Virus record (IMG/VR): IMGVR_UViG_2713896779_000033 | Length of the DNA stretch: 4,162 nucleotides | Reading direction: 5' to 3' (one strand) | DNA from: a virus | Taxonomy: Duplodnaviria; Heunggongvirae; Uroviricota; Caudoviricetes | Shown: in pieces, positions 1,234-4,162 of the stretch | Position numbering within the stretch: position 1 is the first letter of the stretch | How the letters are laid out: the number at the start of each line of letters is the position of its first letter | Made by a program: the position numbers and the translations under genes | The notes under the pieces: model-generated | The model's input: only the letters and a program-made list of their open reading frames with translations | What the model was told of the DNA's origin: nothing | The model's database searches: none

Positions 1234-1283
1234 NNNNNNNNNNNNNNNNNNNNNNNNNNNNNNNNNNNNNNNNNNNNNNNNNN
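1234..1283. other. Run of 50 N: assembly/scaffold gap at the IS3 left end
   Basis: Exactly 50 N. Sequence on the right side (1284-1308) does not match the expected IS3 terminus, so this is a true contig break with unknown missing length. Confidence 0.85.
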
Positions 1284-1468
1284 GAGGAAAGACCTCTGCG
1301 AGGTACGAATCCGAACCGGCCAGACGGAGGTCGCTGTCTTCGTAGCCTACGAACCTGAGGAGTAAGAGACCCGGCGGGGGCGAAATCCCCCGCCACCTCT
1401 GATGTGTCAGGCATCCTCAACGCACCCGCACTTAACCTACTTCGGCGGTTTTTTTTCACGTACTGTGG

Positions 1469-1545
1469 TTGTGAATACGATTGGTATTAGGATATGCTAA
1501 CAACATTAGCTTGACTAATTTTGTATTGACTTGATTTTTGTTAAA
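1469..1545 (+). promoter_or_regulatory. Putative promoter/operator region of the small-ORF/Doc operon, containing tandem TTGACT…TTTTGT direct repeats
   Basis: AT-rich stretch immediately upstream of the RBS at 1562-1569. Two adjacent near-repeats, ttgactaattttgta (1511-1525) and ttgacttgatttttgtta (1526-1543). Possible -35/-10 pairs exist (e.g. TTGTGA 1469-1474 / TATGCT 1493-1498) but none is compelling by eye. Confidence 0.3.
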
Positions 1546-1576
1546 GAACAGGACGGAGAAGTAAGGGGGGCACCCA

Positions 1577-1756
1577 ATGAGCTACGCACTAAAAAAACAC
1601 CCGCGATTGACTATTCCCCCTCGCGATAAAAGCGTTGTGGCAGCTCCGCGCCCGGCTATCGATGAAAATTGCACTCATCGTGAGCAGGTGAAAAATGCTT
1701 TCGATTTCGGTTTTTCTCGTTACGAGAAGGCAATGGAAGAACTTTCAAAAGTGTAA
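1577..1756 (+). CDS. Small ORF (59 aa), candidate antitoxin/partner of the downstream Doc-family toxin; no recognisable family
   Basis: ATG at 1577 preceded by a strong SD (aaggggggcacccaATG). Translation MSYALKKHPRLTIPPRDKSVVAAPRPAIDENCTHREQVKNAFDFGFSRYEKAMEELSKV*, stop TAA at 1754-1756, 18 nt before the toxin ATG and in the same frame. Missing from the ORF track, presumably because it is under the length cutoff. Confidence 0.45.
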   Translation: MSYALKKHPRLTIPPRDKSVVAAPRPAIDENCTHREQVKNAFDFGFSRYEKAMEELSKV

Positions 1757-1774
1757 TGATGGGTATTGTGCTCT

Positions 1775-2260
1775 ATGGCTGAGATTGTTGAAGGAGTGCA
1801 TTACCTTACGGTTGATGATCTTGTTGAAATCAATCGTTCCCTAATTGAATTACAGACGCCAGATGAGCTCGTTGGTGTTCTGAGTCCAGATAACTTAAGT
1901 TCTTCTCAGGCCCGTCCCAGCATGGTTCGATGGTATGAACAGACTAATGACATGTTTGTACTGGCATCGGTATTGATTGAAAGTCTGATTCAGAATCATC
2001 CGTTTGCTAATGCGAACAAACGAACAGCTATGATGGCTGGTTACGTCTTCTTGTTGTTGAATGGCTATGAATTAACAGCACCAGGCGATGAAATCGTGGA
2101 AATGGCAGAGGGACTGGCCTGCAAAACCTATACTCGAGAAGATCTCGAGAACTGGTTGTGTTATTGGTCTCGCGCGTATGACAGCCGGGAATTATGTAAA
2201 ACAGGCGCAACTATTGTTTTGTATGAAACTATCAAGTTTAAAATGGAACAGCAAAACTAA
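1775..2260 (+). CDS. Doc (death-on-curing)/Fic-family toxin, 161 aa from ATG 1775 (track uses TTG at 1766)
   Basis: Contains HPFANANKR (nt 1997-2023), matching the Doc-type Fic motif H-x-F-x-(D/N)-(A/G)-N-K-R found in P1 Doc, rather than the canonical Fic HxFx(D/E)GNGR. Motif position (His ~75) is similar to P1 Doc. Stop TAA at 2258-2260. Confidence 0.85.
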   Translation: MAEIVEGVHYLTVDDLVEINRSLIELQTPDELVGVLSPDNLSSSQARPSMVRWYEQTNDMFVLASVLIESLIQNHPFANANKRTAMMAGYVFLLLNGYELTAPGDEIVEMAEGLACKTYTREDLENWLCYWSRAYDSRELCKTGATIVLYETIKFKMEQQN

Positions 2261-2274
2261 AGGTGCTTCCAATG

Positions 2275-2298
2275 AAAACCCGCTTCGGCGGGTTTTTT
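2275..2298 (+). terminator. Rho-independent terminator downstream of the Doc-family gene
   Basis: aaaaCCCGCttcgGCGGGtttttt: 5-bp GC stem with a TTCG tetraloop followed by a T-run, flanked upstream by A's (possibly bidirectional). Lies 15 nt after the toxin stop. Confidence 0.75.
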
Positions 2299-2380
2299 GT
2301 TGTTTATTTTCGGTGAGTATGATGCATCTGGTTGTACTGATGTGGTTGGCTGATTCTGTTATTCAGGTGGCTTATTGCTG

Positions 2381-2408
2381 TTGATCGGTATGTCTTCACG
2401 GCTAGAAT
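2381..2408 (+). promoter_or_regulatory. Putative sigma70 promoter (TTGATC - 16 nt - TAGAAT)
   Basis: -35-like TTGATC at 2381-2386 and -10-like TAGAAT at 2403-2408 with a 16-nt spacer, about 80 nt upstream of the ATG at 2489. Confidence 0.35.
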
Positions 2409-2488
2409 CGAGGCTCTTAAGTAGCGCGCAGGGAGAAGAGGGATGGACCCCGAAGGGGAAGAGCTATTTATCTGGAAGGATTCTGAAG

Positions 2489-2662
2489 ATGAAAATCGAA
2501 GAATTGCGTGAAATTTTTAGTGAAAATGGCCTCTATGCTGTGCGCGTTGAGAATGGGAAAGTTGTCTACACAACGTTAATCCCTGATGATCATGTAATTT
2601 TATCTATCGAGGCATTCATTGAATACCTTGAAAGGCTCGGTTTCAAGGTAGTTCGCGAATGA
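2489..2662 (+). CDS. Hypothetical small protein (57 aa), function unknown
   Basis: ATG at 2489 with an SD-like ggaagga 8 nt upstream. Translation MKIEELREIFSENGLYAVRVENGKVVYTTLIPDDHVILSIEAFIEYLERLGFKVVRE*. The track's TTG start at 2375 and the in-frame ATG at 2390 lack an RBS and overlap the predicted promoter. Confidence 0.5.
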   Translation: MKIEELREIFSENGLYAVRVENGKVVYTTLIPDDHVILSIEAFIEYLERLGFKVVRE

Positions 2663-2670
2663 GTTATAAT
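2642..2670 (+). promoter_or_regulatory. Possible internal promoter (TTCAAG - 17 nt - TATAAT) ahead of the 199-aa gene
   Basis: Perfect -10 hexamer TATAAT at 2665-2670 with a weak -35-like TTCAAG at 2642-2647. Could be chance in AT-containing sequence. Confidence 0.2.
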
Positions 2671-2721
2671 TCGTAAGCCAGCCTGAACAACTGGCAACCT
2701 ACAGCGCCATTGGAGACAGCA

Positions 2722-3321
2722 ATGGCGCATATACAACTGGTCAAACAAACCTCTTCCGGATTACTTCTCCCGGCGACGCCGGAGAGTTGTGATTTTCTGC
2801 ATCAAATCAAAATAGGCGAGTGGATACACGCTGATTTCAAGCGCGTTCGTAACTACGCATTCCATAAGCGTTTTTTCAAACTTCTGCAACTCGGATTCGA
2901 TTACTGGACTCCGGTCGGTGGGGCGATCACTCCTCGCGAGCGAAAACTGGTGTCCGGTTTCGTTGATTATCTGTGCGAATCAGTAGGCCGGGAACATACG
3001 CCAGCTCTGAGCGAAGCCGCAGAGCAATATCTGAATACAGTTGCGACACGCAGAACCCGAGATACAGCATTGCTAAAGTCGTTTGAGGCTTTCCGCGAGT
3101 GGGTAACCATTCAGGCAGGATTTTACACCGAGCATATTTATCCTGATGGTAGTCGTGGGCGCAGGGCAAAATCTATCGCATTTGCGAACATGGACGAAAC
3201 CGAGTTTCAGCAGGTTTATAAATCTGTACTGAATGTGCTGTGGAACTGGATCCTGTTCCGTAAATTTTCCTCTCCGGAGGAAGTCGAAAATGTGGCCGCG
3301 CAGCTGCTGGAGTTTGCGTAA
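2722..3321 (+). CDS. Prophage protein of unknown function (~199 aa), tentatively DUF1367-like (family assignment from recall, unverified)
   Basis: ATG at 2722 with GGAGA at 2712-2716 (track starts at TTG 2710). Long uninterrupted ORF with stop TAA at 3319-3321 overlapping the next gene's ATG (TAATG). Sits directly upstream of the YbcO-like gene as in lambdoid prophage nin regions. Confidence 0.8.
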   Translation: MAHIQLVKQTSSGLLLPATPESCDFLHQIKIGEWIHADFKRVRNYAFHKRFFKLLQLGFDYWTPVGGAITPRERKLVSGFVDYLCESVGREHTPALSEAAEQYLNTVATRRTRDTALLKSFEAFREWVTIQAGFYTEHIYPDGSRGRRAKSIAFANMDETEFQQVYKSVLNVLWNWILFRKFSSPEEVENVAAQLLEFA

Positions 3322-3611
3322 TGGTGGATTTACGTAAAGCGGCAAAAGGTCAGATGTGTACAGTCAGAATTCCTGGCTACTGCAATCACAATCCCGAAAC
3401 GTCCGTGCTGGCGCATTACAGGCTGGCGGGGACGTGTGGAACAGCGACAAAACCACACGATATGCAGGCGGCAATTGCCTGTAGCTCATGCCACGATTTA
3501 ATCGACGGGCGGGTAAAAACCAGCGATTACACCAAAGAAGAATTGCGCCTGATGCATGCAGAAGGTGTTTTTCGCACACAAGAAATCTGGAGAAAGGAAG
3601 GTTATTTATGA
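3321..3611 (+). CDS. ybcO: YbcO-like (DUF1364) prophage protein, putative zinc-binding nuclease, 96 aa
   Basis: Translation MVDLRKAAKGQMCTVRIPGYCNHNPETSVLAHYRLAGTCGTATKPHDMQAAIACSSCHDLIDGR… closely resembles my recollection of E. coli DLP12 YbcO (…DLRKAA…C.VRIPG.CN.NPETSVLAH…). Same 96-aa length, with a Cys/His cluster including CSSC. Confidence 0.8.
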   Translation: MVDLRKAAKGQMCTVRIPGYCNHNPETSVLAHYRLAGTCGTATKPHDMQAAIACSSCHDLIDGRVKTSDYTKEELRLMHAEGVFRTQEIWRKEGYL

Positions 3612-4162
3612 TTTACCCAACAAATACAGGCAAAAGCGGGGAACGCCTTCGTCTCACCACGCTGGAAAGTGTCTGGATTCAGGGAAAACTGCGCATGTGG
3701 GGGCGCTGGTCGTATATTGGCGGCGGTAAGACGGGAAATATGTTCAACCAGTTGCTGACCTCTAAAAAGCTGACAAAAACGGCAATTAACGAGGCGCTCC
3801 GGAGGATGAAAAAAGCAGGTTTGGACAAACCTGAACTTGAGGCTTTTTTGCGGGATATGATCAACGGCAAGCAAAAAAGCTGGCTGGTGCATTGTACTGA
3901 TGCAGAGGCGTTATGCATTGATCGGGTGATTAGTGAAGTGCTGGCAGAACACCCAGGATTGATTTGTATCCTCCGGCAACGATATGAAGGGAGGGGGATG
4001 ACTAAGCGAAAAATGGCTGAATTGCTGAATGATTCACACCCTGAGTGGTGTTTTCGGACGTGCTGCAGTCGGGTAGATGTATGGCTAAATCTTGCTGAAT
4101 ATATGCTCTATCTACCGATGCGTGATGCATTCTCTTCCGGGGATCTAAAAACCGTCTGTTGA
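3608..4162 (+). CDS. Prophage protein (185 aa), possibly a Q-like late-gene antiterminator by position; family not verified
   Basis: ATG at 3608 overlaps the upstream stop (ATGA) with a strong SD (aaggaagg) 7 nt upstream, so the track's start at 3488 is rejected. Stop TGA at 4160-4162. It lies immediately after ybcO-like, where lambdoid prophages typically carry rusA/ninG/Q. It is not RusA-like by sequence and lacks the paired CxxC motifs of lambda Q, so the call is tentative. Confidence 0.7.
   Translation: MIYPTNTGKSGERLRLTTLESVWIQGKLRMWGRWSYIGGGKTGNMFNQLLTSKKLTKTAINEALRRMKKAGLDKPELEAFLRDMINGKQKSWLVHCTDAEALCIDRVISEVLAEHPGLICILRQRYEGRGMTKRKMAELLNDSHPEWCFRTCCSRVDVWLNLAEYMLYLPMRDAFSSGDLKTVC

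Follow-up and report, generated by a model that had tools for sequence, protein, structure and literature searches.

Prophages of the Rac and Qin type are governed by short repressors that are not open to cleavage following DNA damage; neither the inducing signal of these prophages nor that of K-12 Rem is known (Ragunathan et al. 2023, PMC10448788). Rem, an 83-aa protein of the Qin prophage, acts as an antirepressor: it derepresses the DicA-controlled promoter dicBp 165-fold, and it was found by PSI-BLAST starting from the Gifsy antirepressors (PMC10448788). The Gifsy repressors are likewise short and non-cleavable and have been grouped with DicA and RacR; they are inactivated by small antirepressors, encoded after a terminator in a LexA-controlled dinI–antirepressor–irsA operon (Lemire et al. 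2011, PMC3121763).

Here we analyse a 4,162-nt stretch of viral DNA (IMGVR_UViG_2713896779_000033; hereafter the window) in which a 57-aa ORF lies between a Doc toxin cassette and a set of nin-like genes. We conclude that this ORF is a genuine, conserved and separately promoted short form of the Rem family, and that beyond this membership of a known family it is ordinary. Its likely role is weighed below against four alternatives.

A short form of the Rem family in a Rac-like prophage

E. coli O121 RM8352 has a Rac-like lambdoid prophage integrated beside ttcA that matches the whole window at 100% identity. On its left side, an IS3-family element in two frames (28 to ~1240, minus strand) is inserted just upstream of hokD (about 1210–1365, partly N-masked); two runs of N (476–525 and 1234–1283) hide part of the IS3 transposase and the start of hokD, which are unreadable there. 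A 59-aa ORF and a Doc/Fic toxin (1577–2260) come next, closed by an intrinsic terminator (2274–2297, plus strand) made of a 9-bp stem, AAAACCCGC/GCGGGTTTT, and a T run. The 59-aa ORF (1577–1756) matched phrog_2208 (E 3e-42) and had no match in Pfam, NCBIfam or PADLOC; presumably it encodes the antitoxin that counters Doc. The ORF under study (2489–2662, plus strand) is followed by a DUF1367 (irsA-like) gene (2722–3321, plus strand; Pfam DUF1367, E 9e-99), which we treat as context outside the unit, then by YbcO/DUF1364 (3321–3611) and a DUF1133/Q-like gene (3608–4162).

The ORF starts at ATG 2489, its stop codon ends at 2662 and, as the initial annotation had described, it encodes 57 residues. 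That annotation took it for an orphan and did not recognise the protein; homology searches place it in the Rem family. A search of 5.8 billion proteins returned 69 homologous clusters, including the identical protein P0001, all with a precomputed match to PF27490, which is named 'Rem' in the gene tables of homologous loci. The protein also matched phrog_340 over residues 1–56 (E 1e-18), as did K-12 Rem (E 4e-23). Our local copy of Pfam does not contain PF27490 and gave only sub-threshold hits to PASTA and DsbC_N, and no family was assigned from local Pfam, NCBIfam or PADLOC. The identical protein is found on at least 1000 contigs. An HMM search of 1.84 billion representatives delimited a small family of 39 clusters, including full-length relatives of ~40% identity that keep the motif P-[DE]-D-H-x-x-L-S...EAF.EY..R.G. 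In its family profile, and in lying after hok and ahead of the nin/Q genes with a shared promoter and leader in front, the gene conforms to Rem. Homology to the characterised K-12 protein covers only the N terminus, with BLASTP and hhalign aligning residues 1–26 and 1–31, respectively. A structure model (pLDDT 73.5, moderate confidence) predicts a helix, two strands and a helix, and found no informative structural match.

The order hok, rem, nin-like genes, Q is that of Rac- and Qin-type prophages and is kept even in relatives of ~40% identity. [quoted passage not shown] It nonetheless behaves as a separate module whose neighbour changes. The downstream neighbour is DUF1367 in 49 of 76 loci; L144, checked among the remaining loci, has a DUF968-type set there. 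The DUF1367 protein of the window is 54% identical to Gifsy-1 IrsA (STM2620), whose gene immediately follows that of the Gifsy antirepressor. The latter, STM2621.1n in Gifsy-1 (73 aa), sits between dinI and irsA, and its spacer carries the same hairpin as the window. Because of this position, the likeness to irsA and the common hairpin, the 57-aa ORF can be said to occupy the antirepressor slot.

That hairpin belongs to an element ahead of the next gene (2665–2697, plus strand), in which a −10-like TATAAT (2665–2670) precedes GCCAG-CCTGAACAA-CTGGC (2679–2697). Five versions of its stem (GCCAG/CTGGC, ACTGG/CCAGT, GTTGG/CCGAC, GCGGGG/TCCCGC and GCAGGG/CCCTGY), those of Gifsy-1 and Salmonella among them, differ in sequence yet stay fully complementary, and the loop core YTGAAC is constant. 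Hairpins of this type occur across all three ORF classes described below (S, R and C), in Salmonella and in Gifsy-1, with different genes downstream, and the one in the window had no Rfam match. It stands six nt past the hexamer and is followed by the Shine–Dalgarno sequence and ATG of the next gene (window 2642–2721). The hexamer is −10-like in most versions and reads CATAAT in Gifsy-1; a possible −35, TTCAAG, lies 17 nt upstream of it, inside the ORF.

A promoter and leader common to three ORF classes

The TTGATC-16-TAGAAT element proposed earlier as the promoter is where it was expected, with the −35 at 2381–2386, a 16-nt spacer and the −10 at 2403–2408 (2381–2408, plus strand). In a promoter scan of 1250–4162 it was the sole site reported, and shuffled sequences gave an expectation of 3.7 ± 2.1 sites, so the match taken alone is no better than chance. 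Across 113 related loci, the −10 TAGAAT is invariant (113/113) and the −35 is TTGAnn in 111 and TTAACT in two, at a spacing of 16 or 18 nt. Six unrelated families of spacer sequence were distinguished, with the promoter variants intermingled across the S, R and C classes of ORF. We judge the promoter to be real because its hexamers are kept across these 113 loci despite six unrelated spacers. No LexA box was found at the promoter when the consensus was searched with up to three mismatches; CTGT-N8-ACAG with one mismatch occurred inside the IS3 element only. Likewise, no operator sequence was common to the promoter and the prophage immunity region, and inverted repeats sought around the promoter were limited to the terminator.

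To survey what lies behind this promoter, we combined an IMG/VR scan for the leader core GTAGCGCGCAGGGA with loci fetched from E. coli genomes. Three classes of ORF were found behind the common leader: a short form of 57 aa (S), long Rem, 83–95 aa in length (R), as in K-12 and O157, and a 55-aa class (C). The S and R classes share the leader and the first 23–26 codons at ~92% nucleotide identity and diverge after that. At the protein level, hhalign aligned the short form with long Rem over residues 1–31 (E 2e-17), and the C-terminal halves of the two forms had no detectable homology (hhalign E 0.1). Among short-form genes, dS is 0.14 for codons 1–26 (2489–2566) and 0.38 for codons 27–57 (2567–2662). 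The low-dS region fits the block at 2416–2557 that is ~92% identical to long rem genes; either a module exchanged by recombination or an RNA-level constraint could account for it.

Likeness to other prophages begins at 2416. With a transcription start near 2415, the leader would measure about 74 nt, against the ~80 nt first estimated, and the ribosome-binding site judged reasonable at the outset is GGAAGGA (2474–2480, plus strand), 8 nt ahead of the ATG and kept in every S and R class leader. The conserved leader, CTTAAGTAGCGCGCAGGGAGAAGAGGGATGG...GGAAGGATTCTG (2416–2488, plus strand), was matched in about 985 of 5426 complete E. coli genomes. From 2416 on it is nearly invariant, being the same or near-same before the 57-aa, the 83–95-aa and even the unrelated 55-aa ORF; the most distant relatives do not retain it.

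Within the leader, comparison of 51 unique sequences revealed an invariant ATG at 2443 with GGGAG 7 nt upstream, which would open a putative mini-ORF (2443–2511 in the window, plus strand). Among the variants it ranges in length from 3 to 22 codons and lies in differing frames with respect to the main ORF. In the window it has 22 codons and overlaps the main start; it has 3 codons in K-12 and, in many O157-type loci, 15 codons with a TGATG stop–start overlap. The leader ATG is out of frame with the main ORF in the window and in frame with it in some variants, which accounts for spurious database entries of 72/73 aa. These forms, and a 95-aa reading from TTG 2375, are start-calling artefacts, as the upstream frame is not conserved.

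A leader hairpin, CCCC-GAA-GGGG (2448–2458, plus strand), was recognised from the same comparison. Its stem is constant and its loop varies (GAA, GAACA, TTAA, GAGA, CATAA and others); because no compensatory change was seen in the stem among the leaders compared, a functional structure is only weakly supported. The leader RNA was predicted to fold no more stably than shuffled sequences (z −0.7 and −1.1), GGGA(G/T)AAG and TTATC(T/C) in the leader showed no consistent co-variation, and a search of all Rfam families at E ≤ 1 returned nothing in 2380–2700. Sub-threshold Rfam hits to rsmX and istR at 2209–2299 correspond to the Doc terminator only.

A candidate antirepressor and its alternatives

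The repressor of this prophage is a protein of 154 aa (L126:13834–14298), encoded ~9 kb upstream of the rem-like gene beside YdaS- and YdaT-like genes. It contains HTH_3/HTH_31 only, and an S24 or RecA-dependent self-cleavage domain was not detectable in it, nor in the repressors at any of the ten places in which the identical 57-aa protein occurs. Among short-form loci with a visible immunity region, 39 of 42 carry a Rac-type repressor with YdaS/YdaT, the repressors being of two subtypes that are 69% identical. The remaining loci have one PaaR2-like and two DicA-like repressors; the latter are two IMG/VR loci (L206 and L214) whose best repressor matches are DicA-like at 57% and 29% identity. 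Among long-Rem loci, the 29 that extend into the immunity region have DicA/DicC without exception. The link between class and immunity persists in L144, even though its left arm (dicB) and its downstream DUF968 and RusA genes are those that usually go with long Rem. This link could be simple lineage linkage, since the loci are not phylogenetically independent.

Given these observations, we favour, on balance and with modest confidence, the reading that the 57-aa protein serves as antirepressor against the short XRE-type repressor of this prophage. The gene would be transcribed from its own sigma-70 promoter just past the hok (here Doc) terminator, and its product would bind the 154-aa repressor and lift it off its operators, so that lytic or early genes would be derepressed, in parallel to Rem acting on DicA and to GfoA/GftA acting on the Gifsy repressors. 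With no LexA box at hand, control would have to lie elsewhere, possibly in the invariant leader. Several considerations point this way. The protein belongs to the same family as K-12 Rem, a demonstrated antirepressor (PMC10448788). Its gene sits in the antirepressor slot, with the promoter and leader of long Rem and the irsA neighbour of Gifsy-1. The repressor, with HTH_3 only, belongs to the DicA/RacR/GfoR group, which is described as controlled by antirepressors (PMC3121763). The short form is linked to Rac-type and long Rem to DicA immunity, even at L144, and its gene is under purifying selection, as set out below. The sequence comparisons show family membership, position, conservation of the promoter, purifying selection, independence from Doc and a repressor in which no cleavage domain is detected; that the protein is an antirepressor, which repressor it acts on and whether the leader plays a part are what we infer.

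Several points argue against an antirepressor. Only the first 26–31 residues are demonstrably homologous to the Rem protein that was tested, the similarity to Gifsy antirepressors is not significant, and the structure model, of moderate confidence, is uninformative. The identical 57-aa protein appears with three repressor types, always together with YdaS/YdaT, protein divergence does not co-vary with repressor divergence (r = −0.12), and two loci have DicA-like repressors. Moreover, with neither a LexA box nor an operator, the silencing of a seemingly constitutive gene is left unexplained.

An alternative that we regard as possible, if rather doubtful, is an accessory protein that shares just the N-terminal module, promoter and leader with Rem, and whose C-terminal half would be aimed elsewhere, for example at YdaS/YdaT-type regulators, a host factor or another phage, with no binding of the repressor. 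The lack of detectable homology between the short and long C-terminal halves would fit such a protein, as would the constancy of YdaS/YdaT beside changing repressors, the missing co-variation and the location at a hotspot for accessory cargo. Against it, the gene occupies the exact antirepressor slot of the Qin and Gifsy prophages, and the phrog_340 family profile spans the full length of the protein (residues 1–56). The repressors themselves could also offer a common target. We compared those that accompany all Rem classes (L126:13834–14298, L127:7935–8342, L143:41076–41486, L129:2944–3408 and L039:3779–4168), which comprise DicA, the Rac-type 153/154-aa proteins, GfoR of Gifsy, a PaaR2-like protein and the C-class repressors; their HTH halves differ, and a C-terminal segment, LLxLFxxLPxxE(K/Q), is common to them. 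That this segment could be a common contact is offered as an idea and not as a result.

An extension of the antirepressor reading, which we put forward as speculation and consider unlikely as a whole, is that of a modular family. A common promoter, leader and N-terminal stretch of ~26 residues would be joined to swappable C-terminal halves, those of the 57-aa, 83–95-aa and 55-aa classes, that choose which immunity is switched, Rac-type repressor/YdaS/YdaT or DicA/DicC, and the invariant leader, with its start codon, SD-like sequence, mini-ORF and G+C hairpin, might serve as an SOS-independent sensor that times antirepressor synthesis. If true, such a scheme would explain the induction of Rac/Qin-type prophages.

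Could the short form be a decayed, functionless remnant of a long rem gene? The RefSeq annotation is in keeping with that: PGAP annotates 2489–2566 only, as a pseudogene fragment ('hypothetical protein, incomplete, missing C-terminus'), and does so in every complete genome inspected. Nine distinct 57-codon sequences nevertheless have an intact frame, with a median dN/dS of about 0.25, and in the part that PGAP drops (codons 27–57) dN is 0.048 and dS 0.376, giving a dN/dS of about 0.13; neither frequent frameshifts or stops in the 3′ half nor a dN/dS near 1 was seen. The ORF is also conserved outside E. coli. Its counterparts in Salmonella reach 75% and 56% identity by BLASTP (74% and 54% in global alignments), and more distant relatives keep the PDDH...EAF.EY..R.G motif. 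Among species-representative genomes the family is confined to Escherichia, Shigella, Salmonella and one MAG, and it is present in the complete deposited phage genome Rac-SA53. Taken together, these comparisons indicate that the short-form gene is under purifying selection, which makes a remnant very improbable and sets the RefSeq pseudogene mark at odds with the gene's evolution.

A role as a third component of the Phd-like/Doc module, either a regulator or a second antitoxin, had been proposed from the position of the ORF, and is even less probable. Its basis is that the ORF adjoins Doc in the window and in 32 complete genomes. Our IMG/VR survey covered 80 loci, of which 72 short-form loci had enough upstream sequence for the comparison; Doc lay directly upstream in four and was absent at 68. 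The identical 57-aa protein is found in ten distinct genomic places, all of them Rac-like prophages, five with the 59-aa/Fic pair and five without it. Across 5426 complete E. coli genomes, the 3′ half of the short form was present in at least 101, the Doc module in 124 and the Doc–rem junction in 32, so that at least 69 of the 101 lack the junction. Conversely, Doc occurs without the short form or elsewhere in the genome, as in NZ_CP169399, where the two are about 790 kb apart. A terminator and a separate promoter stand between Doc and the ORF, and PADLOC gave no match for the 57-aa protein.

The Doc module is thus optional cargo between the hok terminator and the rem promoter; the 57-aa gene is unrelated to the cassette and is not to be counted in it. 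In cargo-free prophages, the terminator that precedes rem is that of hok, which the Doc-cassette terminator nearly matches. Related loci have ACCCGCTTCGGCGGGTTTTT as the terminator of hok or of other cargo, and it closes each insert. In the window, a degenerate copy is left after hokD (1436–1456). From the hok terminator to the rem promoter extends a hotspot for cargo, occupied at other loci by various inserts, such as an RmrT/RmrA pair at L144:12184–13918 (PADLOC E 5e-25 and 6e-105).

Lastly, JGI names the homologue P0033 'predicted RNA binding protein YcfA (HicA-like)', and the model (helix, two strands, helix) would suit that name, but a HicA-like RNA-binding toxin is scarcely credible given no HicA Pfam match even at E ≤ 1, no fold support and no HicB-like partner nearby.

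E. coli commonly carries prophages of the Rac and Qin types, also in its O157, O121 and O104 strains. If the short form is indeed the antirepressor of the Rac type, it would put a name to the switch gene of a large prophage group, some members of which bear toxins (LT-II in Rac-SA53).

Comparison with the Gifsy antirepressors, K-12 Rem and Rac-SA53

Like GfoA, GftA and GfhA of the Salmonella Gifsy prophages, the window's gene encodes a small protein outside the immunity region and after a terminator, directly upstream of irsA with the same spacer hairpin, and the cognate repressors belong to the short DicA/RacR/GfoR group. Unlike the Gifsy operons, the window has no LexA box, and no dinI homologue lies upstream of the gene. 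Alignment of the 57-aa protein with the Gifsy antirepressor gave an hhalign E of 0.11 over 39 columns, which is not significant, with both alignments shallow; the link published for Rem runs by way of PSI-BLAST intermediates. The Gifsy protein has 73 aa, and its low-confidence model has four strands, as against two in the 57-aa model; at a pLDDT of 59 the AF2 Gifsy model was too poor for a comparison of topology, and we set it aside.

K-12 Rem and the 57-aa protein both match PF27490 and phrog_340 and are 73% identical over their first 26 residues; both genes have the same −10 hexamer, leader, ribosome-binding site and hok-to-nin/Q position, and the repressor that goes with each is short, with no cleavage domain detected. 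The K-12 rem promoter variant is found whole in some short-form loci, whereas the window has another −35 and spacer. The two differ in length (57 versus 83 aa), residues 27–57 having no detectable similarity to Rem, and in their linkage, to a Rac-type repressor and YdaS/YdaT rather than to DicA/DicC; the short form is known from sequence.

A further counterpart is the rem gene of Escherichia phage Rac-SA53 (KU052037), which was named by similarity ('rem, similar to Rem of Qin prophage') and has no Doc cassette in front. Its 58-aa product is 70% identical to the 57-aa protein over the full length, the accompanying repressors are 69% identical, and the order hok, rem, irsA (DUF1367), ybcO, Q is the one found in the window.
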